Source of the DNA: Nostoc punctiforme PCC 73102
GTDB taxonomy: Bacteria; Cyanobacteriota; Cyanobacteriia; Cyanobacteriales; Nostocaceae
Direction: 5' to 3'
NCBI RefSeq assembly: GCF_000020025.1
Contig: NC_010628.1
Span: 4,650,001 to 4,682,000, forward strand
DNA: 32,000 nucleotides
The notes under the pieces were generated by a model. It had not been told where the DNA came from. It did no database searches and was given only the letters and a program-made list of their open reading frames with translations. Both the position numbers and the translations under genes were made by a program. Below are positions 3,912 through 32,000 of this stretch, in pieces (the first letter of the stretch is position 1; every line of letters starts with the position of its first letter).

Positions 3912-4775
3912 CTATTTTTTACGTAAGTCCTGTTTAGCTAATCGCTGCTTAATAGATTCAGGCAATCGTTCTGGATGCTTGGAAAAATAAAAGATTTTTA
4001 AGAAAGTAAAATTTATATTCCGAGCTAACCAAATCTGCCATTGTTCCATCAAAGATAGTGTTTTAATATAATTATTAAATAATTGTTCAATTCGCGCTAA
4101 ACTGCTTCCTGTTGCAGAATCATCAAATGTTTTAGTTCCTGGATAATATCTAAAGTTACCCCAAGTTTCATTGAAATACTTAACATGAGATGAACAAACA
4201 GCTTTCAAAAGGAAATCTATATCCATTGAATAATGATCTTCTACTTTATAGAGTCCGATTTTCTGATGCAATGATTTATGATAGAAGTAAGCAGATGGAT
4301 TTACTGGAAAAGAAGCATCGATAATTCCATCATCATTAACTCGTCTTTCTAAGAGTAAATCTATTGTTCGTAATTGGCTAGGTTTATTAAGAGACATTAG
4401 CTGACCTTTCTGATTAATGATATTACAGTTACCAACAATCAAGCTAGGTTCTGGTAAAGTTTGGAAAATTTCGAAGATGCGGTTAAGAAGATTTATCTCA
4501 TAAAAATCATCAACATTTAAAACACCAATAATCTCTCCTCGTGCCATAGCAATTCCTTTATTAATAGCGTCAGATTGCCCTTTGTCCTTTTCACTAATCC
4601 AACGTATGTGGGGATATTGATTGGCTTTATCCTTAATAATGTCTACTGTCTTGTCGCTTGAACCTCCATCAACAACGATATGCTCCACTTCTAAACAGTT
4701 TTGGTCAATGACAACTTGAAGGCAAGATTCTATAAATTTCTCACCGTTATAAACTGGTGTAATTATACTAATCAT
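3912..4775 (-). CDS. Family-2 glycosyltransferase
   Basis: ORF track 3912..4781. ISIITPVYNGEKFIESCL, HIVVDGGSSDKT and LNVDDF are GT2 (GT-A fold, DxD-type) hallmarks. The track start at 4781 is TTG; the ATG two codons downstream (4775) is preferred. Confidence 0.88.
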   Translation of the reverse strand: MISIITPVYNGEKFIESCLQVVIDQNCLEVEHIVVDGGSSDKTVDIIKDKANQYPHIRWISEKDKGQSDAINKGIAMARGEIIGVLNVDDFYEINLLNRIFEIFQTLPEPSLIVGNCNIINQKGQLMSLNKPSQLRTIDLLLERRVNDDGIIDASFPVNPSAYFYHKSLHQKIGLYKVEDHYSMDIDFLLKAVCSSHVKYFNETWGNFRYYPGTKTFDDSATGSSLARIEQLFNNYIKTLSLMEQWQIWLARNINFTFLKIFYFSKHPERLPESIKQRLAKQDLRKK

Positions 4776-5192
4776 TAACAAGAACCTTTTGTGCGTATTG
4801 CAAACAAAAAATAATTCAAATAATTGAATTGATCTCCAATCGTATAGTTCCCAATTGGCACAAGTTTATAACGCGATTTAGGACAGTGTAAATACGTAAA
4901 TTGAGCTTGCGTATGTAAGTGATAGATTTAAATTCGTCTAAGGGTATTTCTGACCAATGGCAAGATACAACTATTTGATGAAGGTGTAGCGATCGATAGA
5001 ATTCTTGAGATTCAATTGAGGCATTGAAAAGGCTATAGAAACGGAGGTTGTTTTTGCCAATCCTCCGTTTCTGATATTTCTATTGTCACTCAAAAATGAA
5101 TAGGCAAAGTGCTGCAAAAAGTTTAGGTAACATTTTGTAGCCTACTGGCAACTTCTGATGTTTGCCCAATGGTAGTAAATCGAGAGAGGGTG

Positions 5193-5552
5193 CTATTCCT
5201 CTTGTACATCAACCCAGATACTACCTTCTTCCACACGAATAGGAAACACTGGTAACGTCTTTGGTTGCGAAACCAACGAGAGTACTTTACCTACACCAGG
5301 TGGCCAGGAACACCAGCCTTGTACCTCACCAGTCCGCAAGTCAAAAGCACTGCGATGGAAGGTACAAACAATTGCTCCACTTTCAGTGATTTTCCCACTT
5401 TTCAACGGTAATTTTAAGTGGGGACAGTTGTTATCTACAGCATAAAGCTGATTCTCGTGATTCAAAACCAGAATTTTCCGGTTGCCAACTTTCACCACTT
5501 CTCGCGTACCTGGGGAAAGTGCTTCAACTGCAAGAACTTTAGTCCAGCTCAT
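5193..5552 (-). CDS. Rieske [2Fe-2S] domain protein (small Rieske ferredoxin)
   Basis: CPH...(17 aa)...CTFH matches the Rieske CxH/CxxH ligand pattern. The start is moved to ATG 5552 (MSWTKVLAVEAL...), which follows GGAGAGGAG on the minus strand. The 46-codon extension in the track (to 5690) has no supporting features. Confidence 0.85.
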   Translation of the reverse strand: MSWTKVLAVEALSPGTREVVKVGNRKILVLNHENQLYAVDNNCPHLKLPLKSGKITESGAIVCTFHRSAFDLRTGEVQGWCSWPPGVGKVLSLVSQPKTLPVFPIRVEEGSIWVDVQEE

Positions 5553-5840
5553 TAGGTTCTCCTCTCCTAATATATCTGCTTTCAGTTTCTCGCAATTGTG
5601 ACCAGTGCGATCGCCTTTCAGTACTAGAGAAAAGTCAGTAGATTGCAAACTTCTCCCGAAAAAGCCATGTCTACGATGAGCTTTGCTCACCTTGGCGAGA
5701 TATAACCGCTATAAATTTTTACATTAAATTCCATTTACACACTGAATGAACTGGTTTCTGGGTAAACTAAAAAAAGCACTTTCTATCCTTGCATCATCAA
5801 GCTTGTAGCTCATCACAGACAATATTGAGGGATATAAAAA

Positions 5841-7688
5841 ATGATTAAGACAAGTTACGAATTTGACCAGTCTATTCTTCCCGCCGGATCTTCATTAAAG
5901 ACTAATATTTTGCTACGTTTTCGTCCTGACATAGCTGAATCTCCCCGACGGAACCTTAACCTTTCTCTTGTAATTGACCGTTCAGGCTCTATGGCAGGTG
6001 CTGCCTTACATCATGCACTCAAAGCTGCTGAGTCTGTGGTAGATCAACTTGAGCCAGATGACATTCTCTCAGTAGTTGTTTACGACGATGAAGTAGACAG
6101 CGTTGTACCACCCCAAGCTGTAACTAACAAAGCCACACTGAAAGATTCTATCCGCAAAGTGAGAGCAGGCGGTATTACCAACTTATCGGGGGGATGGCTC
6201 AAAGGCTGTGAACACGTCAAAACACGGCTCGATCCACAAAAAATCAACCGTGTTCTCTTGCTTACTGATGGTCACGCCAATATGGGCATTCAAGACCCCA
6301 AGGTACTAACGGCGACATCAGGGCAAAAAGCTGAGGAAGGTATCACCACAACTACATTAGGTTTTGCTCAGGGTTTTAATGAAGACCTGCTGATTGGTAT
6401 GGCAAGGGCTGCCAGGGGAAACTTTTATTTCATTCAAAGCATTGATGAAGCAACTGAAGTGTTTAGTATTGAGCTAGACAGTCTCAGAGCAGTAGTAGGA
6501 CAAAACCTCACAGTGAAACTTGAGTTGGCTGAAGGTGTCAGTCTTGTTGATACCTTAAGTCTTGCAAAAGTTAGCCAGAATGACGCTGGTCAGGCTGTTA
6601 TCAGCTTGGGAGAGCTTTACGAGGGTGAAGACAAACTTCTCGGTTTAAGTTTGGTGATATCAAGCGCTCAAGTTGGTGAGTTACCTGTGATGAAACTGCA
6701 TTACAGCGCTGACGTTATCCAAAATGACCTCATTCAAAACGTTTCAGGCACAGCAGATATCATTGCCAAAGTTGGCACTGTTGAGGAAGCCGCTTTTGCC
6801 TCTACAAGCCATATCATTCTTGAACTGAGCCGCCTCACCATCGCTAAGGCTAAAGAGACTGCCCTCGATTTAGCTGAACATGGCAGACACCAGGAAGCGG
6901 AAGAAACCCTGCGTACTCTGGTGAAAGATTTGCGGGATAAAGGGTTAAACGAGAATTTTGAAATTGCTGAAGAGATCGATCAGCTTGAGTATTTCGCAAG
7001 TCGAATCGCCCAAAAAGCTCTAGGTAATGCCGGACGTAAAGAATTGCGAGATCAGTCTTACCAGACAATGAACCGCAATCGTAACGATCTGGTGGGGCGC
7101 GGTGTTACTGCTGGTGATGAAGTGTACGCAATGCCGGTTGTCAATGAAGTTGGCTCAGGTGTTGAATTGTATTGCGTTCGTGAAGGAGGTAAACTACGGG
7201 TCAAAGTCATATCTGAAGGCTATGATTCAGCCAAGAATGTCCAGTTTCCGCGGAGTATTCGGGCTGAGGGAGCAAGGTACGTTGTTGAAGGGCTGGAACT
7301 TTCAAATGAAGGCACTTTCTACCGTGTACGTGGCAATATCACTCGTTTTGCTCAACCCGGTGAAACAGATATCTTCGTTGCCCCTAGACAATCGAATATA
7401 GCTTATACAGGCAAAGCCTCTAAAGGGTCTGCGAGCGCTGCCGATCTTCCCACAACTGATGTTGTAAAAGATGGCATTCTTGTTCAGTGTGTCAAAGATG
7501 GCAGCAAGCTACGCGCTAGAGTGGTTTCCGACGGTTATGAACCAGATTGGAATATGCGTTTTCCGCGATCGGTTCGTGAGGAAGGGATGCTTTATGTTGT
7601 TGATGAAGTCAAAACAGCACCTGATGGAAAGTCCTATATTGCGTGTGGTGAAATTAAGCGATTTGTCCAACCCACTACTACCAATTAA
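5841..7688 (+). CDS. von Willebrand factor type A (vWA) domain protein with a beta-rich/helical middle region and two C-terminal copies of an unassigned ~68-aa module
   Basis: MIDAS residues are present: LVIDRSGSM (DxSxS), GGITNLSGG (T) and LLLTDGHAN (D). Internal repeat: aa 438-505 SGVELYCVREGGKLRVKVISEGYDSAKNVQFPRSIRAEGARYVV...RF versus aa 544-611 DGILVQCVKDGSKLRARVVSDGYEPDWNMRFPRSVREEGMLYVV...RF. ATG is preceded by GAGGGA. Confidence 0.85.
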   Translation: MIKTSYEFDQSILPAGSSLKTNILLRFRPDIAESPRRNLNLSLVIDRSGSMAGAALHHALKAAESVVDQLEPDDILSVVVYDDEVDSVVPPQAVTNKATLKDSIRKVRAGGITNLSGGWLKGCEHVKTRLDPQKINRVLLLTDGHANMGIQDPKVLTATSGQKAEEGITTTTLGFAQGFNEDLLIGMARAARGNFYFIQSIDEATEVFSIELDSLRAVVGQNLTVKLELAEGVSLVDTLSLAKVSQNDAGQAVISLGELYEGEDKLLGLSLVISSAQVGELPVMKLHYSADVIQNDLIQNVSGTADIIAKVGTVEEAAFASTSHIILELSRLTIAKAKETALDLAEHGRHQEAEETLRTLVKDLRDKGLNENFEIAEEIDQLEYFASRIAQKALGNAGRKELRDQSYQTMNRNRNDLVGRGVTAGDEVYAMPVVNEVGSGVELYCVREGGKLRVKVISEGYDSAKNVQFPRSIRAEGARYVVEGLELSNEGTFYRVRGNITRFAQPGETDIFVAPRQSNIAYTGKASKGSASAADLPTTDVVKDGILVQCVKDGSKLRARVVSDGYEPDWNMRFPRSVREEGMLYVVDEVKTAPDGKSYIACGEIKRFVQPTTTN

Positions 7689-8487: not shown

Positions 8488-8819
8488 TAGTCTACTACCT
8501 CCATATAGGCATCAGGGCGATATTCACGTTGTTTCCAAACGCGGTAAAGCCCTTGGGGTAATTCAATCGCCCGATGTTCTTCATGAACTAAAGTGGCACT
8601 TGGTTCTTTAACCTCTAGAAAAAGATCGCTACCATGTACCCACAACTGAACAGCATCAGCTTGCTGAATGCGATGGCTATGTCCTGTAATTTCACCATGA
8701 GCGAGAGTAGCACCTAGACGCTTCTGAGCGCCGACAGGTAAGCTAGCAATATGTCTAATTAGAACGTCGCCATGTCTGTAGAGAATACTAGCTTGGGAGT
8801 TATTGCTGTTGTTAAACAT
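8487..8819 (-). CDS. Small conserved hypothetical protein (HGDVLI...GEITGHSHR motif; probable small beta-barrel)
   Basis: 110-aa ORF with ATG at 8819, 23 nt downstream of the DUF4157 gene stop and overlapping the next gene by 1 nt. The motifs HGDVLI, GEITGHSHR and LVHEEHRAIELPQGLY resemble a family I recall from phage and bacterial genomes, of unknown function. Confidence 0.65.
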   Translation of the reverse strand: MFNNSNNSQASILYRHGDVLIRHIASLPVGAQKRLGATLAHGEITGHSHRIQQADAVQLWVHGSDLFLEVKEPSATLVHEEHRAIELPQGLYRVWKQREYRPDAYMEVVD

Positions 8820-8842
8820 CTTTTTATTACTAAATCCTATAG

Positions 8843-10288
8843 TCAGATTAGATCCTGTTGTAGCGTTTTCGGCTCTATCTGTTTAGTTTGAACTCCTATC
8901 TGTGCATTTGATTCATCTCCATTTTGAGAAACTTTTTCTGTGCCGCATTGTACCGGGGTTACTCCTGTACCTTGAGTCAGCCCGTGCTTAGTTGTGGTGT
9001 CGTAGGTATTGTTATCAGTATTAGCTTTAGTATAAGTATCGTTAAAAATTGTGTCAGATGCTGAGGTTGTTTTGCCAAGCAGCTTTTTGTGTAAATCTTT
9101 AAAAGCCTTCTCGTCAATACTAATGTGCCCATTTTCGTGCTGATCCAGAGCGCTATAAAATCTTGCCCATTCTGTTTTAACGGGTTCGCATTGTTTGTCA
9201 AGTTCAGTCCAGACGGGCATTGCCTTAGTTTCTGTGACTAAAACGTCTGCTTCATAGATAATTTCAGCAGACCGATCGTCAGCTTGGTAAGTTTTGACAC
9301 TTTTCTCTGGGGCACAAGTAACACTGCCCGCTTCGCCCTTTCCTTGTGATGTTAAGTTTGTAATTGCTTCAGTGATGTTTTTCCCAGAAGCGGTAATTGT
9401 AGTATTCTTGTGGTCAATTTTGGTTGTACCTGTTTTGGGCGGCATACCATTAGATGCCTGGTCAAGAGGGACTGGTGCTGTGGATGTATCGCTTTGTTTT
9501 TGCACCTTGCCTGTTTGCTGTACCACATGGGTTAACTCATGGGCTGTCAACTCGTTATTACCAGGTGATTTCCCTGCACCGAAGTAAACATCACTACCAT
9601 GAGTAAATGCCTGCGCTCCCAACGACTGACTCATCTGCATAGCATTAGAGTCAGTATGTACTCGCACATTGTTAAAGTTACTACCAAAGCGTGGTTCCAT
9701 AAACTCTTGCACTTCGGCAGATAACGGGCTTCCCCCACCCTTACTACTATTTAACTGACTCTCAATGTTATTCTCACTCTGGACGCTGCCATCAGTCGCC
9801 CGTTGTAGTGACAGCTTAGTTTGTAGTTCCTCTTCTTCTTCACAAGCTGCACATTTTCGTTGCATGATATCTTGTGAACCCATCTCACCCAAATTTATCT
9901 TTGGCTCAGGTCTAGTCATCCGCATAATTTGGTTAGCAACCCAGTCAGCTGACTGCTCATAATGGTCTCCTGGCTGGCTAACTGCAAGTTGTGGCTGTGG
10001 ACGACGCAAAGATATGCGACTAATGTCGTGAACAACAGGCTTTTCTTTGATAGCTTCTGGTTCTAATGATTGCTCGTTAGCAGGCTGGGCTTCTTGAAGG
10101 TCGCTTGCTACCTCAGTGACTGTTCCGAGTGGAGTATGATTTGTTGGTAAACCAAAACCGCGTGTCGGATTCGCCAATGTGGGAATAGTTGATGAGACAA
10201 GCGATAAATTTGTAAAATTTGACGTACCTGCGTTGTGTTGCCGAAAAGTGCGTAGACGCGAAGCGTCTTGTCTTATGACATCGCTCAT
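8843..10288 (-). CDS. DUF4157-type (eCIS-core-like) protein with a second, C-terminal HExxH domain (DUF922-like putative Zn-peptidase)
   Basis: Classic DUF4157 layout: HYEQSADWVANQIMRM, LQRK/CAACEEEEELQ linker, then FGSNFNNVRVHTDSNAMQMSQSLGAQAFTHGSDVYFGAGK...LTAHELTHVVQQ (aa 185-258, nt 9515-9736). A second HExxH is at DQHENGHISID (aa 382-392), preceded by MPVWTE...WARFYSAL. The N-terminus is hydrophilic with no signal peptide visible. Confidence 0.8.
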   Translation of the reverse strand: MSDVIRQDASRLRTFRQHNAGTSNFTNLSLVSSTIPTLANPTRGFGLPTNHTPLGTVTEVASDLQEAQPANEQSLEPEAIKEKPVVHDISRISLRRPQPQLAVSQPGDHYEQSADWVANQIMRMTRPEPKINLGEMGSQDIMQRKCAACEEEEELQTKLSLQRATDGSVQSENNIESQLNSSKGGGSPLSAEVQEFMEPRFGSNFNNVRVHTDSNAMQMSQSLGAQAFTHGSDVYFGAGKSPGNNELTAHELTHVVQQTGKVQKQSDTSTAPVPLDQASNGMPPKTGTTKIDHKNTTITASGKNITEAITNLTSQGKGEAGSVTCAPEKSVKTYQADDRSAEIIYEADVLVTETKAMPVWTELDKQCEPVKTEWARFYSALDQHENGHISIDEKAFKDLHKKLLGKTTSASDTIFNDTYTKANTDNNTYDTTTKHGLTQGTGVTPVQCGTEKVSQNGDESNAQIGVQTKQIEPKTLQQDLI

Positions 10289-25501: not shown

Positions 25502-26521
25502 ATGGATTCCTTCGGTATCTACACCCTGGCTAATGATGTGGTGTTTGACCAACTAGTAGCTTTGCTAAACAGTATTGAGGTGAATGTTAGCGCAGATATT
25601 CCTATTTGTATAATTCCATATAATGAGCAACTAGATTTAGTTAGGAAAGAAATTAATAATCGAAAAAATGTAATCTTATTTGATAATTGGGACGTAATTC
25701 AACACTGGGAAGAATTTGCTCATCAGGTTTGGGCAGCACATCCAAGGGAAAAAGAGGCAAAGTTATCACGTCCTAGTTGGTACAAAAGTCATTTACAAAG
25801 AAAGTTTGTTGCCTTTGAGGGTATTTTTGATAAATTCGTATTTTATGACGGTGATAGTTTGGCAATGAAGCCACTCAATAATGTAATTGACAAGTTAGAA
25901 ACATCAGATTTTGTTTTTGATGATTGGGAACACCTTAAGGATAGGGCTGTTGCAGCGTTAAATATTTCAGTCATAGAGAAAACTGGGCTGTATACAGAAG
26001 CAGATATACGTCCTCAACTCCATTGTTCTAGTTTTTTTGGCTCTAAACGAGGATTGTTTACTGTTAAAGAAATTGAGATACTGAAGGAGCGATTAATTAC
26101 CCAAAAAGAAGTTGAGTGGATTAATGGACATGGATGGTGGGATGATTCTTTTTTGTTTAACTATATGACCTTGCGCTGCGATCGCCCACTTTTTAACTTT
26201 ACACTTAGCCCCAATGGTGAAGATAGAACAGGCAACTGTGCCAATGCAGATCCCTTTGTCAATATTAATAACGTTCTTTATAATCAAGATGGCTTAAAAC
26301 CAATTCATCGTATACATTATATGAGCTATTCTTCTCGTGATTTTGCCCAGTTATCTCAAGGGCAAGATGTCAATATATGTTATGGAGATGAATTTTTGCA
26401 CTATCGCTTTCTTAAAGAACCAGAACAAAGACCAAAACAGCTTAAACCAGCAAGTATAATTACCAAAACTAACAATTTCTTTAACAAAACAATGAATAAA
26501 ATTCAAAGAACTCTCCGTTAA
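25502..26521 (+). CDS. Putative nucleotide-diphospho-sugar transferase (GT8-like), cyanobacterial conserved protein
   Basis: 339-aa ORF. The N-terminus GIYTLANDVVFDQLVALLNSIEVN and the FYDGDSLAM (DxD-like) motif resemble the GT-A/GT8 layout. It is adjacent to a GT2 gene. The function is inferred only. Confidence 0.5.
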   Translation: MDSFGIYTLANDVVFDQLVALLNSIEVNVSADIPICIIPYNEQLDLVRKEINNRKNVILFDNWDVIQHWEEFAHQVWAAHPREKEAKLSRPSWYKSHLQRKFVAFEGIFDKFVFYDGDSLAMKPLNNVIDKLETSDFVFDDWEHLKDRAVAALNISVIEKTGLYTEADIRPQLHCSSFFGSKRGLFTVKEIEILKERLITQKEVEWINGHGWWDDSFLFNYMTLRCDRPLFNFTLSPNGEDRTGNCANADPFVNINNVLYNQDGLKPIHRIHYMSYSSRDFAQLSQGQDVNICYGDEFLHYRFLKEPEQRPKQLKPASIITKTNNFFNKTMNKIQRTLR

Positions 26522-26591: not shown

Positions 26592-27539
26592 ATGCCTAAA
26601 ATTACTGTTTGCGTTCCTACTTTTAATCGTGTTAATCTTCTTCCTTATGCCATTGACAGTGTACTGAATCAGTCTGAGCAAGACTTTGAGCTAATTGTTT
26701 GTGATGACGGTTCTAGCGATCGCACACCTGAGTTAATGTCACAGTATACAGACCAACGGATTAAATATATTCGTCATTTGCAAAATATTGGTAAAAGTAA
26801 TAATATGCGCTCTGGCTTTGATGCAGCCAGTGGTGAATATTTTATTAAATTTGATGATGACGATCGGCTCACACCCGATTTTCTTGCAAGTACCGCAGCG
26901 ATTCTTGCTCAAGACTCTAGCATTGATTTTGTTGGTACAGACCATTGGATAATTGATATTAACAATGTGCGGGATGAAGCAAAAACTCAAGAAAATACTC
27001 ATCGCTGGGGTAGAAAAAATTTACCAGCAGGTGTTGTAGATAATTTGTTGGAAGTTGTATTTGTTAACCAAAGCTTTCAAGTTGGTGCAACATTATTCCG
27101 CCGTAAAACATTGCAAGAATTAGGATATATGCAGCCAAATATGCAAAATTGTGAGGATAATGATTTATTTGTGCGTTTAGCTTTGGCGGGAAAGAAGGGT
27201 TATTATTTACCAAAATTATTGATGGAATATCGCACTCATGCAGAACAGCAAGGTATAAATCGAGCCATTCCTTATTTGTTTGATAAAATCCGGTATTTAG
27301 AAAGTTATAAGTTTGATTTTGAAAAAATAGAGACAATCAGGAAAAATCGTCTAACTGAAACGCAGTTATTATTAGGTTTGCGTTTAATTGAAAAGGGTGA
27401 AACGCAAAAAGGTAGAGAGCTAGTTTTGGCAGGGCAGTCTTTTTCAACTCCTAAAGCTTGGACTGGTTTAGGATTATCATTGTTACCAGTTGGGTTGCGA
27501 GGTAAGGCGTTTAATGCACTGCGACAAGTGCGGGGTTAA
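26592..27539 (+). CDS. Family-2 glycosyltransferase
   Basis: ITVCVPTFNRVNLLPYAIDSVLNQSEQDFELIVCDDGSSDRT and FDDDD are GT2 hallmarks. 315 aa. Confidence 0.9.
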   Translation: MPKITVCVPTFNRVNLLPYAIDSVLNQSEQDFELIVCDDGSSDRTPELMSQYTDQRIKYIRHLQNIGKSNNMRSGFDAASGEYFIKFDDDDRLTPDFLASTAAILAQDSSIDFVGTDHWIIDINNVRDEAKTQENTHRWGRKNLPAGVVDNLLEVVFVNQSFQVGATLFRRKTLQELGYMQPNMQNCEDNDLFVRLALAGKKGYYLPKLLMEYRTHAEQQGINRAIPYLFDKIRYLESYKFDFEKIETIRKNRLTETQLLLGLRLIEKGETQKGRELVLAGQSFSTPKAWTGLGLSLLPVGLRGKAFNALRQVRG

Positions 27540-27663
27540 GCTAGCTTTATCTTGGTATTAATAGTTTCCCGGAAGTATTATATTTGTGGCAGTTCATAAG
27601 TATAACGAGCCAGTTTTCTTATTTTGACATCATTTACTGAGGTATCGAGGCGGAACACACCTA

Positions 27664-28497
27664 TTATTGACTGCGTATACTTGTAACTTGTTTTAGTTTT
27701 TCGTAAGTACCTTTGGCAAAGTTTTTAATTTTATGTTCACTTCCTGATTCAGACGATTTCTTAAGATTTTGCCAGGTTAAAATTTTTCCTGCTTGTTTCC
27801 AATATTTAATAGCTTCCCATGCAGCATTTGTTTGATTTTTATTTGCGCCAGCTTCCTCTAAGAGACTCTTAATTTCATCCTCATTTGCTATTAGCAAATT
27901 TAACTTTGGTGGAGGTACCACTTCTTTAATAAGTAATGCCAGTTTTTCCAATGCAGATAATATATTTTCAAGTCGGCTTTCAATTGCTTTCAATTTTACT
28001 TCAGAATCTGATTTTTCTGTATTACCTGAAGTATTAGAAATTAATTGATTTATTTTGGTATAAATTGGTTTAAGTTTTTGCTCAATTAAGCTACTAATAT
28101 CAGTTTCTTCTTTTACACTATTTTCACCATCAATTGAATAGCCAAGTAACTGCTGCATTTCATCTTTAGCAGCAGCAGCTTGCTCATCATTCATATCAAA
28201 CACCCAAACCCATAGCTTTTCAATGTCAAGTTCTTTAGCAACAATACACCAATCAGTACCATAGACAACTTCGTACTCCTCTTCTTCACTATACGCTTGG
28301 GTACGACGCACAATTAGAGGAATTAAATTACTTTTGTGTTGAGTTAGAGTCTCCTCTATTAGCTGGTGTCTTTCTAACGAAATATTCTGCTGTTCTGACG
28401 CTGATATAGCAATCTGAAAAGTATAAACTTGACCATGACTAATTGGTTCAATACCCAAGTTAGCGCGAATACGGGCACGACGTTGTGAACTATCCAT
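27664..28497 (-). CDS. Degenerate ParB-like N-terminal domain protein with a coiled-coil middle and a possible HhH-like C-terminus
   Basis: NLIPLIVRRTQ...EYEVVYGTDWCIVAKELDIEKLWVWVF follows the ParB-N pattern (P-hV....Y.hh.G.RR..AAk.hg). However, the GERRxRAA box is replaced by GTDWCIVA, so the arginines are missing. Heptad-like helical region: aa ~130-200. The ATG overlaps the upstream ParA-fusion gene by 8 nt. Confidence 0.65.
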   Translation of the reverse strand: MDSSQRRARIRANLGIEPISHGQVYTFQIAISASEQQNISLERHQLIEETLTQHKSNLIPLIVRRTQAYSEEEEYEVVYGTDWCIVAKELDIEKLWVWVFDMNDEQAAAAKDEMQQLLGYSIDGENSVKEETDISSLIEQKLKPIYTKINQLISNTSGNTEKSDSEVKLKAIESRLENILSALEKLALLIKEVVPPPKLNLLIANEDEIKSLLEEAGANKNQTNAAWEAIKYWKQAGKILTWQNLKKSSESGSEHKIKNFAKGTYEKLKQVTSIRSQ

Positions 28498-30001
28498 GAT
28501 TTTTTGAATCTCCAGTAGTAACTTTAATCAAATGTTGAGCTAGATTGGTGTAGCGTTCTAGAACTTTTTGTGCAGCCTCTTTTTCTTGAGAGACAAGTGT
28601 GTTGTCAAATTCGCCTTGGTACAGTGGATATCCTTTATCTTGACAAATAGAAACTATATTTAAACGTGGAATCCAAGTGTTTTCAGGAAAAAGTTCCACT
28701 TTGTTACTGCCACCACTCTTTTCAATAATTTCGAAAAGTCTGACAACCATAGACTTATTGTAGTTGGACGATTTTTGATCGTACATACTAACGGCTATTC
28801 CCAAAATTGGTAGAGGTTCATCTTTTAACTGCTCTATTTCGTTTGTTCTATCTAGTACATATTCTAAAGCTCGAATTGCGTAGGCTGATAACTGAGTAGG
28901 AATAAGAATAGCTGATGATGCCATTAATGATATGCTGTTAACTTTGCCGAAAGAGGGAGGCGGATCAATAAGTACGAAATCATAATCATGCTTTTTCAGC
29001 TTTTTTGCGAGTAGACGATCGCTATCTACTGTTTGATTAAGTGTAGTTTCCATTCTACTTAGGCGTATATGTGATGGAACCAAGTCCAATTGAACATCTC
29101 CCCAATTAGTTGTAGTTATTGTGTCCTCTAATTTAGTTCTTGGTTCAGTAAGTAGATGAGTAATATCTTTCTTCCCTTTCTGTTCAATATCATCCAAAGG
29201 ATCTATTCCTAATCCCATTGTTAGATTAGCTTGAGCGTCAATATCAATCAGCAGTACTCGCTTACCAAGCTTGTTGAGAGCGGCCGCGAGGTTGATAGTA
29301 GTTGTAGTTTTACCTACTCCTCCTTTGTTATTAAATACAGTAATAATCATCGATTTACGTTCCTCCTTAGTTTGAGAAATTAAAATTTTTTCTTCACTGG
29401 TTTGCTGTATTTGCGAGGGAAAAGTCTTGCCTTTGTTGAATAAACCCAACATATCTTCTTGTTGCACCTCTTTTGAGATTAAATTTAAAAATTGTAAGCG
29501 AATATTTTGTTGATTTTTATACAGGGTAGAAGTAAAGTTTAAATAAGTTTTTTTGGATAAAATTTTGTAAAATGACCTATATTTTTGAATAAGTGTCACT
29601 TGGGAATACTCTACAATAGTGGTAATTCTTTTATCATGGTTATAAAGTATACGAAAATCATAGCCATTGGTTAACAGTCCGATAACAGATCCCGTATGGC
29701 GCATATAATTATTAATTTGCCAAACACTGTGGGCAATGTTTTTACTAGGTGCTTTAACTTCAATAATTAAATAGGCAGGTTTTATTAAAGCGGAATCTGG
29801 TTGACCCACTAGGAAGTCAAGCTTAGATTGTAAAATTACTACTTGAGACTGCCAATCGCTATTGCTGTAACCAAGGATACGCAAGAGTGGAACTACGACC
29901 TTTTGCTCTACATCAGATTCGTTACTATTTGGGGCGATCCCTTGAAAAATGTTTTGCAGGGTCGAGCCATAGTCAGCAATCATACTAGCACCGAGAGGCA
30001 T
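28490..30001 (-). CDS. Fusion protein: N-terminal HsdR-N-type PD-(D/E)xK nuclease-like domain plus C-terminal ParA/Soj-family deviant Walker A ATPase
   Basis: C-terminal half: MIITVFNNKGGVGKTTTTINLAAALNKLGKRVLLIDIDAQANLT (KGGxGKT deviant Walker A with signature Lys226) and FVLIDPPPS (Walker B). N-terminal ~215 aa: SDVEQKVVVPLLRILGY, KLD62FLV, LIIE81VK83AP and Q95INNY99. This gives D...ExK...QxxxY in the order and spacing seen in type I restriction HsdR nuclease domains. Confidence 0.8.
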   Translation of the reverse strand: MPLGASMIADYGSTLQNIFQGIAPNSNESDVEQKVVVPLLRILGYSNSDWQSQVVILQSKLDFLVGQPDSALIKPAYLIIEVKAPSKNIAHSVWQINNYMRHTGSVIGLLTNGYDFRILYNHDKRITTIVEYSQVTLIQKYRSFYKILSKKTYLNFTSTLYKNQQNIRLQFLNLISKEVQQEDMLGLFNKGKTFPSQIQQTSEEKILISQTKEERKSMIITVFNNKGGVGKTTTTINLAAALNKLGKRVLLIDIDAQANLTMGLGIDPLDDIEQKGKKDITHLLTEPRTKLEDTITTTNWGDVQLDLVPSHIRLSRMETTLNQTVDSDRLLAKKLKKHDYDFVLIDPPPSFGKVNSISLMASSAILIPTQLSAYAIRALEYVLDRTNEIEQLKDEPLPILGIAVSMYDQKSSNYNKSMVVRLFEIIEKSGGSNKVELFPENTWIPRLNIVSICQDKGYPLYQGEFDNTLVSQEKEAAQKVLERYTNLAQHLIKVTTGDSKNHG

Positions 30002-30120
30002 CTAACTTTACAATTCTATCTGCTAATTTATCCGTTGTAAAAATTTTTGCCTATATTGCTAGTAAAATCCAAGAATGGCTAGAATCAAAGAGTTTAATCA
30101 ACCTATTTGCGCTAAAGGTT

Positions 30121-30492
30121 TTGGCTACTGTATCTTGTCCCCACTGCCATCAACTCGTTGATAGTCAAGCTATTAGTTGTCCCTATTGCCGGACTACACT
30201 CAAAGCTTACGGTCATCCCGGTATTCCATTGCACCGCGCCACTGGGGATGGGTATCTGTGCAACACTTGCACCTATCACGCTGATGATACTTGCAATTTT
30301 CCTCAGCGTCCCTACGCCAAAGACTGTACCCTCTACCAAAATATTGAACAGACAAAATTAGAGTTGGAACAGCAGCGTTACACGAACAGTTTTGCTGTAA
30401 CTGTGAAAACTTGGGTAAAACGCAATCAGGCTTTGCTGTTGCTATTAGGTTTATTATTGGTCTGTTTGTTGTTCGTGATATTAAGGTCTTGA
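30121..30492 (+). CDS. Zinc-ribbon protein with a C-terminal transmembrane anchor
   Basis: CPHC...(14)...CPYC is the zinc-ribbon pair. There are additional Cys (CNTC, C..C), and the C-terminal TM is ALLLLLGLLLVCLLFVIL. The start is TTG (no in-frame ATG upstream), so it is uncertain. Confidence 0.6.
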   Translation: MATVSCPHCHQLVDSQAISCPYCRTTLKAYGHPGIPLHRATGDGYLCNTCTYHADDTCNFPQRPYAKDCTLYQNIEQTKLELEQQRYTNSFAVTVKTWVKRNQALLLLLGLLLVCLLFVILRS

Positions 30493-30589: not shown

Positions 30590-32000
30590 TTAGACCGTGG
30601 TGATTTTGGATGCTTCAGTAATAGCTTCAACTTGTATCGGTGGCGCTTTTTCCTCAAAGGCGGCTAAGTCGAACCAAAAAGTTGTGCCAATGCCAACTTC
30701 ACTCACTAGATGGACTTTACTACGATGTCTGTCGATGATATTTCTGACAATCGATAATCCTAAACCTGTGCCTTCTAGGGTGTGAACTCGGTTTTCTACG
30801 CGAAAGAAGCGTTCAAAAATTGAGTGCTGGTCTTCTGTAGCAATGCCAATTCCAGTATCGGAAATTTCAATCCGCACTGGAGAAGATTGGCTGTGATTGG
30901 GTTTGAAATCTAGTTGGTAAGCGCGGATTGCTACTTTACCACCGGCTTTGGTAAATTTGAGGGCATTACCAATTAGATTGCCAAAAACTTGTACTAACAG
31001 ATCGTAATTACCCATTACCAGGGGTAAATTAGTATCAACTTCCTGAAGAAGTTCAACACCTTTATCTTTGGCATTGAGTTGGTAAGTACGCAATGTTTGC
31101 TCGATCGCTTGAGCTAGATCCACTCCATCGAAGTTATACTGACGGCCAGATTCGAGTTTTGATAAATCTAATACATCGTTAACTAGGCGGGTTAGGCGAT
31201 CGGTTTCATGATTAACTGTTTGCAAAAACTCTTGCCGTTCTTCTAATCCTAAGTCTTCGCCGTAGTCATGCAGGGTTTCAATATAGGTTTTGATGTTAAA
31301 TAAAGGCGTTCGCAGTTCGTGAGAAACGTTGCTGATAAATTGACTTTTTGCATCGTTTAATTCCACCTCACGGGTTATATCTTGGACGGTAATCGCAATA
31401 CCTTTGATGCTTTCTCTTTGCACGTTGAGTACTGTAGTCAAGAGAATACGGATTGTTCGAGGGGTGGGTTGGTTAATAAAAATGCGGAATTCGGCGCTTT
31501 CGCATTCACCTGCTGCCATTTCGTACAATGGGCCAGTGATTTCCATTTGTACTGCTGGCGGCAAGTGATGCAATACATTGCAACCAACCACATCAGCCGT
31601 TTCCCAGCCAAAAATCCGCCGCGCCGTGGGGTTGACTAATATCACCTGCATGTTGTTATCAATCAACACAGCACCATCTGCGATCGTGGAAACAAGGGTT
31701 TCTAGCTTGGCTTTTTCTGCGGTCAGTTCTTCAATATTCTGTTCTTCATAGCGTTCTAATCGCTCTGCCATCTCATTAAAGCTTAAAATTAACTCCCCTA
31801 GTTCGCCCCCTAAAGGTAAATCAATGCGCTGCTTGAAATTCCCGGTAGCAATTTCCTTTACCCCCACTAGCAGTTCTTTTATTGGTTTAGTGATGGTCAA
31901 AGCGTTGATTACTCCTGCCAAAATCACCATTACCCAAATTGTGATAAAAACGGCAATGGTGACATCGCGGGTAAAATTGGTGGAGATGACAGCAGTCTGA
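30590..32000 (-). CDS. Sensor histidine kinase (TM-HAMP-PAS-HisKA-HATPase_c), NblS/Hik33-like; N-terminus lies beyond the window end
   Basis: The reading frame stays open upstream of the track's Met (31930) to base 32000 (...QTAVISTNFTRDVTIAVFITIWVMVILAGV, a TM helix). HAMP: PIKELLVGVKEIATGNFKQRIDLPLGGELGELILSFNEMAERL. PAS: LVSTIADGAVLIDNNMQVILVNPTARRIFGW. H-box: FISNVSHELRTPLFNIKTYIETL. N, G1 and G2 boxes: GNLIGNALKFT, DTGIGI, GTGLGLSIV. Confidence 0.9.
   Translation of the reverse strand, partial: QTAVISTNFTRDVTIAVFITIWVMVILAGVINALTITKPIKELLVGVKEIATGNFKQRIDLPLGGELGELILSFNEMAERLERYEEQNIEELTAEKAKLETLVSTIADGAVLIDNNMQVILVNPTARRIFGWETADVVGCNVLHHLPPAVQMEITGPLYEMAAGECESAEFRIFINQPTPRTIRILLTTVLNVQRESIKGIAITVQDITREVELNDAKSQFISNVSHELRTPLFNIKTYIETLHDYGEDLGLEERQEFLQTVNHETDRLTRLVNDVLDLSKLESGRQYNFDGVDLAQAIEQTLRTYQLNAKDKGVELLQEVDTNLPLVMGNYDLLVQVFGNLIGNALKFTKAGGKVAIRAYQLDFKPNHSQSSPVRIEISDTGIGIATEDQHSIFERFFRVENRVHTLEGTGLGLSIVRNIIDRHRSKVHLVSEVGIGTTFWFDLAAFEEKAPPIQVEAITEASKITTV

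Follow-up and report, generated by a model that had tools for sequence, protein, structure and literature searches.

What might a ParA-type ATPase do when it is fused to a nuclease domain and paired with a ParB-fold protein that lacks the GERRxR cytidine triphosphate (CTP)-binding box? This question is raised by two overlapping minus-strand genes in a 32,000-nucleotide (nt) stretch, hereafter the window, of the chromosome of Nostoc punctiforme PCC 73102 (NC_010628.1); coordinates are those of the window unless a locus name precedes them. An initial annotation, made from the nucleotide sequence alone, proposed that the pair could serve in the exclusion of plasmids or phages or in an unusual form of segregation. 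Here we analyze the domain architecture, distribution and variability of this module. The results neither prove nor refute that functional idea. We tentatively interpret the two genes as an accessory cassette, a conflict module whose targets are foreign or extrachromosomal DNA, which it would exclude or restrict, an interpretation that comes close to an even chance without quite reaching it.

The nuclease-ParA fusion

Gene 1 (28490..30001, minus strand) encodes a protein of 503 amino acids (aa), identical to ACC82104.1/B2J337, and gene 2 (27664..28497, minus strand) encodes a 277-aa protein identical to ACC82103.1/WP_012410074.1. The two listed open reading frames (ORFs) overlap by 8 nt (ATGGATAG), such that the minus-strand end of gene 1, ...CAT GGA TAG, is overlapped by the beginning of gene 2, ATG GAT AGT...; with this overlap, the genes are translationally coupled, in line with the two-gene operon of the initial annotation. 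The RefSeq version of the gene 1 product (WP_234710951.1, 497 aa) starts at M7, and in our alignment most orthologs start in the same region as well. The true start is probably M7 at position 29983 (497 aa), so that the residue numbers used here, which count from the first ATG of the 503-aa form, may shift by -6.

The N-terminal domain of the gene 1 product (aa 26-150; 29552..29926, minus strand) matches Pfam HSDR_N_2 at aa 28-120 (cut-off 25), the full-length sequence scoring 29.5 bits and the isolated N-terminal part 32.1 bits; the corresponding HSDR_N scores are 25.7 and 29.1 bits (cut-off 25.1). Its AlphaFold2 (AF2) model (predicted local distance difference test score (pLDDT) 87.4, predicted template modeling score 0.81) contains an alpha-beta-beta-beta-alpha-beta core, that is, the restriction endonuclease-like fold, and is most similar in the PDB to HsdR (3h1t), followed by other restriction endonuclease folds, BpuSI and Cas4. 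Thus, a nuclease fold, and not an unrelated one, was modeled, and the HsdR-type assignment of the initial annotation is upheld, together with its motifs D62, E81-x-K83 and Q95-x-x-x-Y99 and the K-to-Q spacing of 12 residues. Homologs of the fusion fall into two types, A and B (see below). All five motif residues are invariant in 120 type A sequences (56-94% identical to the window protein), as are K226, K231, D255 and D346 of the ATPase. In 120 type B sequences (240 in total), D, E, K and Y along with all ATPase motifs are likewise invariant, and Q of the QxxxY motif is replaced with R or K, so that, of the residues whose conservation the initial annotation had proposed to examine, D/ExK/Y are kept in all 240 sequences and Q in type A only. 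The nuclease core looks intact and has been retained across very deep divergence, and the domain is predicted to cleave DNA. By domain content, the fusion is distinct from an HsdR subunit: no superfamily 2 (SF2) translocase or helicase domain was detected in it with Pfam, and no HsdM/HsdS-type methyltransferase or specificity gene is present among the neighbors scanned. The joint between the nuclease and ParA domains (29357..29551, minus strand) consists of a long helix, aa 150-186 (AF2 pLDDT 88-97), and a linker, aa 187-215, that varies in both length and sequence across the alignment.

The C-terminal part (aa 216-503; 28493..29356, minus strand) is a Soj-type ParA ATPase, as the initial annotation had stated: it matches Pfam AAA_31/ParA at aa 219-410 (E = 1.7e-45) and contains the signatures of the ParA/MinD superfamily, namely, the deviant Walker A motif KGGVGKT with the signature lysine (K226 and K231) and the A' and Walker B aspartates (D255, D346). 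In the PDB, it comes nearest to the Soj proteins of H. pylori (6iub; E = 2.6e-25) and T. thermophilus. The score of 83.4 bits with NF041546, the NCBIfam model of partition ParA equivalogs, against a cut-off of 180 indicates that the fusion is a ParA superfamily member and not an equivalog of the curated partition ParA; the scores with the NCBIfam SopA and RepA models are far under the respective cut-offs.

The DNA-binding residues of B. subtilis Soj are R189, K201, R215 and R218 (PMC6393308, on the complex of HpSoj with DNA). The B. subtilis Soj sequence with which we mapped these residues was validated only by its length and the published residues 12, 16, 40, 189, 201, 215 and 218, and the alignment around the DNA-binding residues is less certain given the 29% identity. 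With this caveat, K or R is found in type A at position 410 in 62% of the sequences, at 428 in 91% and at 446 in 65%; at 446, the counterpart of R215, the residue in these 65% is R, and at 449, the counterpart of R218, only I or V occurs. In type B, both of these positions (446 and 449) are acidic, with D or E at the match of R218. The basic patch that mediates non-specific DNA binding in ParA (R189/K201/R215/R218 in B. subtilis Soj) thus appears to be degraded, with partial retention in type A. Given that the nuclease core is kept and the ParA patch has decayed, we infer that contact with DNA is provided by the nuclease domain and perhaps also by the partner.

The ParB-fold partner

In the AF2 model of the gene 2 product (pLDDT 79.7), a helix at aa 3-14 is followed by an alpha/beta domain extending to approximately aa 118, helices within aa 134-193 and a C-terminal domain. 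The Pfam ParB_N score of the window protein is sub-threshold (14.5 bits versus the cut-off of 26.3); type B partners score above the cut-off (32.9 and 35.9 bits). The top Foldseek matches of the model are Noc (7ol9), ParB-CDP (6sdk) and KorB, with sulfiredoxin lower down, and a profile of the N-domain built from 15 diverse orthologs matches, across the PDB, only Noc, Spo0J and ParB. At the level of the structural models, the ParB/sulfiredoxin fold of this domain (aa 17-118; 28144..28449, minus strand) is thereby confirmed. The profile alignment sets 'YEvvyG-adw-clvA' against 'YElIAG-ERR-wRAv' and so places G80-T-D-W on G-E-R-R, exactly the substitution that the initial annotation had noticed in a ParB-N-like core. 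GERR is seen in no partner of type A or B, and neither is the complete GERRxR box; the most divergent members have GEDI, GEEI or GFEY instead. Judging from these alignments, both CTP-contacting arginines are replaced. No helix-turn-helix (HTH), in the central part or elsewhere, was detected in the partner in the AF2 model or with Pfam.

The N-terminal basic peptide, which the model shows as a helix (aa 1-16, MDSSQRRARIRANLGI; 28450..28497, minus strand), is conserved: R6 is kept in at least 90% of the sequences, and I10 and L14 are invariant. By analogy with the N-terminal peptides of ParB proteins, it is a candidate ParA-activating peptide. The middle part (aa 134-193; 27919..28098, minus strand) is modeled as two helices, 134-157 and 162-193, and its profile matches only coiled-coil proteins in the PDB, confirming the long coiled coil described initially; this region is poorly conserved and highly variable in length and sequence. 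The C-terminal four-helix domain (aa 200-277; 27667..27900, minus strand) is confidently modeled (AF2 pLDDT of about 94) and has no Pfam match in the window protein. Its alignment by hhalign to the helix-hairpin-helix (HhH) hairpin of orthologs with an HHH_3 tail is weak (7.6% probability). Hence the HhH-like tail proposed by the initial annotation is at best a tentative assignment for the window protein. In orthologs, the same C-terminal position is occupied by HHH_3 (ComEA-type), SAP/HeH or Rho_N domains; the tail is thus interchangeable and probably binds nucleic acids irrespective of sequence.

Distribution, pairing and the two types

A ParB-fold gene is located directly downstream of the fusion in 15 of the 15 type A loci, with no other neighbor conserved, and in the type B loci with a readable downstream gene, a ParB_N-type gene directly follows. 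The two genes are therefore an obligatory pair. Full-length fusions were found only in cyanobacteria, namely, in Nostocales, Planktothrix, Coleofasciculaceae, Leptolyngbyaceae, Gloeomargaritales and a Synechococcus-like metagenome-assembled genome (MAG), the exceptions by label being one MAG assigned to Actinomycetota and three MAGs without a name. Several fusions sit on multi-megabase chromosomes. None was detected among the 72,556 plasmids in PLSDB, where the best matches are ParA-only proteins with at most 33% identity, or in the viral contigs of IMG/VR, and an ordinary plasmid partition locus was rejected on these grounds; the homologs also lack adjoining replication genes and centromere repeats. 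When 1.84 billion cluster representatives were searched exhaustively by HMMER with just the nuclease domain, only 78 clusters were obtained at E <= 1e-3, and most of those long enough to judge proved to be ParA fusions too. The module is restricted to cyanobacterial chromosomes. With respect to the neighborhoods, for which the initial annotation had envisaged a ParB-like companion and either defense islands or plasmids, the companion was consistently recovered, and no defense island or plasmid was.

The two types are deeply separated, with approximately 29% identity to each other. Type B, which was found among the matches of the nuclease-domain HMMER search, comprises proteins of about 450-490 aa that are 26-31% identical to the window protein, and all of its genera are cyanobacterial: Nostoc, Calothrix, Chlorogloeopsis, Microcoleus, Allocoleopsis, Nodularia, Anabaena, Leptolyngbya, Phormidium and Halothece. 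The type B partner is a ParB_N gene product with an HHH_3 or SAP tail and without GERR. An earlier view that types A and B are paralogs in separate loci was revised, as both occupy the same slot in Nostoc.

The presence of the fusion in Chloroflexota was considered and rejected, as the ParAs that come closest outside the cyanobacteria (L016-L021) have a length of about 260 aa, no N-terminal domain and a different partner. Four of these Chloroflexota proteins (L016, L018, L019 and L020) are 39-41% identical, and the next gene encodes repeated arginine-rich motifs of the 'RRGQGLRLS' type fused to an apparent alpha/beta-hydrolase (HGW..S motif). Its product may be another kind of partner for ParA, in which peptides that stimulate ParA are arranged in tandem.

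Allele replacement at the Nostoc slot

In Nostoc sp. C052, FACHB-892 and DSM 114159, a type B module occupies the exact slot that in the window holds the type A module. The slot is bounded by two conserved anchors, a GT2 glycosyltransferase gene (26592..27539, plus strand; Pfam Glycos_transf_2) and a gene for a zinc-ribbon membrane protein (30121..30492, plus strand; Pfam Zn_ribbon_3/DZR). In the Nostoc genomes with the different allele, the GT2 protein is 90-93% and the zinc-ribbon protein 95-96% identical to those of the window, and synteny extends further, over a 149-aa gene, MFS, SDR and histidine kinase genes (89-94% identical). The fusion in these three strains is 31-33% identical to that of the window, and their partner gives no BLAST match. 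Nucleotide homology to C052, to L178 (type B) and to L182 and L183, where the slot is empty, ends at about 27538-27543 and restarts at about 30074; the gap encloses the operon together with the region of its promoter. The whole cassette, which in Nostoc is represented by type A, by type B or not at all between the conserved flanks, accordingly spans 27540..30073.

A metagenome search anchored on the GT2 gene and confined to close relatives (GT2 at least 84% identical) revealed 15 further copies of the slot, of which 12 carry type B, one type A and two are empty. Type B is represented at the slot by many sub-alleles: compared with the C052 copy, the fusions of the 12 type B copies are 62-96% and their partners 34-97% identical. 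At the two empty slots (L182 and L183; GT2 86% and zinc-ribbon protein 88-90% identical to those of the window), the zinc-ribbon gene lies 162-259 nt past GT2, with the same breakpoints and only filler resembling hairpins or miniature inverted-repeat transposable elements (MITEs) in between. This filler (L182:6948-7109 and L183:6948-7206) is built from perfect hairpins, of which GTAGGGGCGCAAAGCTTTGCGCCCCTAC is one, plus MITE-like G/C-rich palindromes, and differs between the two loci. A Nostoc MAG (L001) carries type A between flanks that are 88-96% identical (with the exception of a 339-aa gene discussed below); its fusion is 78% identical to that of the window, and its partner 58% identical, in the N-terminal half only. 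Among type B copies, the module is 96%/94% identical between L167 and L170 and the flanks are 91-92% identical, the alleles being shuffled relative to the flanks; between L169 and L167, the fusion is 83% and the partner 50% identical. In L180, the type B fusion is reduced to a 222-aa ORF (8519-9184, minus strand), and this copy may be either a pseudogene or the product of faulty assembly. L186 and L214 have one to three additional genes separating GT2 from the module.

The module is AT-richer than the surrounding locus in all four genomes checked (GC 0.34-0.35 versus 0.38-0.41), and its GC of 0.35 compares with 0.41 for the whole window. The operon stretch itself is low in GC (0.35-0.36), although it is not the most AT-rich part of the window, as the initial annotation had it: the 1-kilobase bin with the lowest GC is 4001-5000 (0.33). 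The partner is among the fastest-evolving genes of its neighborhood. The slot is a site of presence/absence variation and allele replacement with fixed breakpoints, and an interim view of the module as a slowly evolving, vertically inherited housekeeping gene was weakened by this analysis.

Genomic context

A promoter-like sequence, TTTACA-17-TAGAAT (30013..30041, minus strand), matching 10 of the 12 consensus positions, is located upstream of gene 1 and inside the cassette boundary; promoter-like sites in the region are not above background, with 12 found versus 8.8 expected from shuffling. A search for parS-like elements in the operon and its surroundings detected neither an array of repeats or palindromes nor operator-like repeats near the promoter, the repeats found being short, AT-rich and attributable to chance; parS sites may lie at a distance. 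According to Pfam, the window neighbors encode the GT2 glycosyltransferase, the zinc-ribbon membrane protein, a HAMP-PAS histidine kinase, MFS, SDR, SnoaL and ChaC. In ten other cyanobacterial loci, the neighbors include desaturase, invertase, GluRS, HHL1-like protein, RecR, glyoxalase II, VanY, LptA, UvrD-exonuclease, one Uma2-family gene and similar genes, and type B loci adjoin pyrF, queG, rpsO, the DAHP synthase gene and truB. As noted in the initial annotation, the vicinity contains neither a parS-like array nor, among the neighbors scanned, an integrase or replication gene, and no mobility genes or terminal repeats were found at the module among the window neighbors and in the repeat search.

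Two deep-branching cyanobacterial loci have a repair gene directly after the module, which encodes RecR in L012 (9369-9947, minus strand) and, in L015 (9104-11521, minus strand), a fusion of a UvrD-type helicase with an RNase T-like exonuclease; this amounts to 2 of 20 neighbors and could be due to chance. In a Nostocaceae MAG (L002), a second, ordinary ParA-like gene (5415-6296, minus strand; 294 aa, AAA_31) is divergently oriented beside the type A module. In the window, a 339-aa gene next to GT2 (25502-26521, plus strand) has no Pfam match and is about 62% identical between Nostoc strains, compared with 88-94% for its neighbors there; it is a second fast-diverging gene of the region, possibly with a link to surface polysaccharides. 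The histidine kinase (HAMP-PAS-HisKA-HATPase; 30590-31930, minus strand) is listed as a 446-aa ORF, and its FACHB-892 ortholog is 648 aa long with 94% identity. The listed ORF is therefore probably truncated by the window end, with the start lying past position 32000.

Proposed mechanism and alternative explanations

How could such a module operate? The ParA half would form the usual ATP-sandwich dimer, and dimerization would join two N-terminal PD-(D/E)XK domains on DNA, thus licensing cleavage, with the contact to DNA coming from the nuclease domain and not from the degraded basic patch of ParA. The partner, which would dimerize through its coiled coil and stay on DNA through the interchangeable non-specific tail, would touch ParA with its N-terminal basic peptide (R6, I10, L14), causing ATP hydrolysis and thereby resetting or restraining the nuclease. 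Under this scheme, a sensor (the ParB fold with the DNA-binding tail), a transducer (ParA) and an effector (the nuclease) would be contained within two genes. The licensing of cleavage by dimerization, the role of the partner as an ATPase activator and the nature of the target are what we infer here beyond the domain assignments.

The hypervariability, domain swapping, AT-richness and dispensability of the module, together with this sensor-ATPase-nuclease logic, are best accommodated by a role in conflict and exclusion; a replaceable cassette that can be present or absent, with a fast-evolving, domain-swapping partner and AT-rich composition, leans in the same direction. Several observations weigh against this interpretation. 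In the window and ten other cyanobacterial loci, the neighbors are housekeeping genes, without a methyltransferase or a recognizable defense island. PADLOC-DB v2.0.0 assigns the partner to no family and the fusion only to a generic Walker A stretch (PDC-M28B) and, weakly, to Cas4. The module was never found on the plasmids or viral contigs searched, which is unusual for a mobile defense system, and no mechanism for discrimination between self and non-self is evident. The slot is filled in most of the Nostoc copies examined, and where it is empty, the module might be present at another site of the genome. Furthermore, in a closely related pair of loci from another order (L007 and L009, flanks 96-99% identical), the fusion is 96% identical, that is, it diverges at the rate of the flanks, which points to ordinary vertical descent; the partner there, at 90.5% identity, diverges as much as one flanking gene and more than the rest of that neighborhood.

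That vertical pattern is one of the observations expected if the module instead maintains the chromosome or nucleoid of polyploid cyanobacteria, the main rival explanation, which we consider less likely on balance, albeit worth serious attention. The module would organize, segregate or repair chromosome copies, the nuclease, controlled by ParA and ATP, would act on DNA ends or branched intermediates or separate linked copies, and the partner would be a sequence-independent nucleoid adaptor. Consistent with such a role, the ParA half is nearest to chromosomal Soj, the QxxxY motif is RecB family-like and there is the weak Cas4 match, and the module is strictly chromosomal, limited to one phylum and found in housekeeping surroundings, twice beside repair genes (RecR in L012 and UvrD-exonuclease in L015). 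The niche would also be open, as cyanobacteria are reported to lack classical ParABS (review, PMC7766704). This explanation is difficult to reconcile with a slot that may be empty or hold a truncated copy, with the interchange of 31%-identical alleles between strains whose flanks are 92-96% identical, with a hypervariable partner that swaps its DNA-binding tail, with a module AT-richer than the host locus, and with the lack of parS, HTH and CTP motif. The same clean replacement at fixed breakpoints would be explained by gene conversion if the module were a selfish addiction or homing-like cassette, in which the nuclease-ParA protein is a potential toxin held by the partner, or cuts cassette-less chromosome copies and so spreads within the polyploid cell. 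The precise boundaries, identical for type A, type B and empty slots, the movement of alleles independently of the flanks, the AT-rich composition and the translationally coupled two-gene layout, reminiscent of toxin-antitoxin pairs, are all compatible with this possibility. We nevertheless regard it as improbable: the contexts are unrelated across orders, which implies no common target site, the partner, with its size and several domains, does not resemble a typical antitoxin, there are no mobility genes or terminal repeats, and toxicity is purely hypothetical so far.

Finally, the module might be an ordinary ParA-type positioning system, acting on an unknown cargo or in autoregulation of the operon, in which the PD-(D/E)XK domain is a non-catalytic DNA anchor. 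Type Ia ParAs carry an N-terminal DNA-binding (HTH) domain that would be the precedent for such an anchor, the degraded basic patch of ParA requires some other contact with DNA, and Q of the QxxxY motif is replaced with R or K in type B. However, inactivated PD-(D/E)XK domains normally lose their catalytic residues, and here D, ExK and Y do not vary across the 240 sequences despite overall identity of about 29%; in addition, no operator-like repeats are found near the promoter, and the tail of the partner is of a type that binds DNA, not a distinct cargo. An anchor without catalysis thus seems to us the most improbable of these explanations.

Returning to the conflict module, its most novel formulation would be a new class of cyanobacterial DNA-policing system, in which a ParA switch gates a RecB/HsdR-type nuclease, a CTP-independent ParB-fold adaptor with exchangeable tails serves as the sensor or regulator, and two ancient types replace each other at fixed chromosomal slots; the role would be to exclude foreign replicons or phages, or to police chromosome copies in polyploid cells. 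We advance this formulation as a tentative proposal, somewhat more likely to fail than to hold. Its interest lies in the fact that ParA and ParB are the paradigm of DNA segregation, and here the switch is hard-wired to an intact-looking nuclease and the ParB fold lacks the CTP-binding box. If the nuclease is active, the ParA ATP-dimer switch would be shown to control DNA cleavage. Cyanobacteria are polyploid, are reported to be without canonical ParABS and are often hard to transform, and a strain-variable, phylum-wide DNA-targeting cassette could bear on the management of chromosome copies or on the barriers to engineering of Nostoc and Anabaena. The natural type A, type B and empty alleles between near-identical flanks make allele swaps straightforward to design.

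Comparison with known systems

Existing automated annotation has already captured both proteins at the domain level, with the fusion named 'BcsQ/predicted type IV restriction endonuclease' by JGI and the partner 'ParB/Sulfiredoxin domain-containing' in UniProt. The module formed by the fusion and its partner, the two types and the cassette polymorphism are undescribed: PADLOC and NCBIfam include no specific family for it, and in the literature that we searched (on PD-(D/E)XK classification, McdAB evolution, cyanobacterial morphogenesis, nucleoside triphosphate (NTP)-dependent conflict systems, Menshen and BREX), there is no description of the fusion, partner, types or polymorphism, in agreement with the inability of the initial annotation to match it to a named system. 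The odds that the module stands for a functional class not recognized before are substantial.

Among the well-characterized systems, chromosomal Soj/Spo0J (type Ib ParABS) resembles the module in that the ParA is small and Soj-type, with the signature lysine in a deviant Walker A motif (HpSoj and TtSoj match it best in the PDB), and is followed immediately downstream by a partner gene whose product has a ParB/sulfiredoxin-fold N-domain. Unlike in Soj/Spo0J, the ParA of the module has an N-terminal nuclease domain of about 215 aa, the partner has a coiled coil and an interchangeable tail instead of GERR, HTH and the C-terminal dimerization domain of ParB, the Soj DNA-binding arginines are partly lost, and a cassette without parS can be present, absent or replaced. 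Type Ia plasmid ParAs (P1 ParA, F SopA) similarly contain an extra N-terminal DNA-interacting domain before the ATPase, but in the module this domain has a PD-(D/E)XK fold, not an HTH, and the module was never found on the plasmids searched. With HsdR of type I restriction systems and with RecB/Cas4 nucleases, it has in common the HSDR_N_2/HSDR_N domain, the D...ExK and QxxxY motifs, the K-to-Q spacing of 12 and the structural match to 3h1t; it differs from HsdR in that the nuclease is fused to a ParA switch ATPase and not to an SF2 translocase, that no HsdM or HsdS is encoded nearby and that type B has R or K in place of Q.

McdAB is likewise a two-gene system of a ParA and a fast-evolving coiled-coil partner on cyanobacterial chromosomes (PMC7182216). 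However, McdA has no nuclease domain, McdB has no ParB fold and does not bind DNA, and McdAB, unlike the module, is often linked to carboxysome genes. A parallel in overall logic exists with the ParB-superfamily defense systems. GmrSD, SspE and Menshen NsnABC, in which NTP is bound through a DGxQR motif, belong to the DUF262 branch and employ ABC or other ATPases, whereas the module has a ParB_N-like domain without a nucleotide motif and a ParA ATPase, and is not matched by the PADLOC models. Nevertheless, they too combine a ParB-superfamily domain and a DNA-binding module with an ATPase and a nuclease effector, and in Menshen, GmrSD and SspE, the ParB-superfamily sensor is accompanied by marked polymorphism of the DNA-binding parts (PMC12065111). 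By analogy, the sensor-ATPase-nuclease logic proposed for the cyanobacterial module parallels that of these defense systems.

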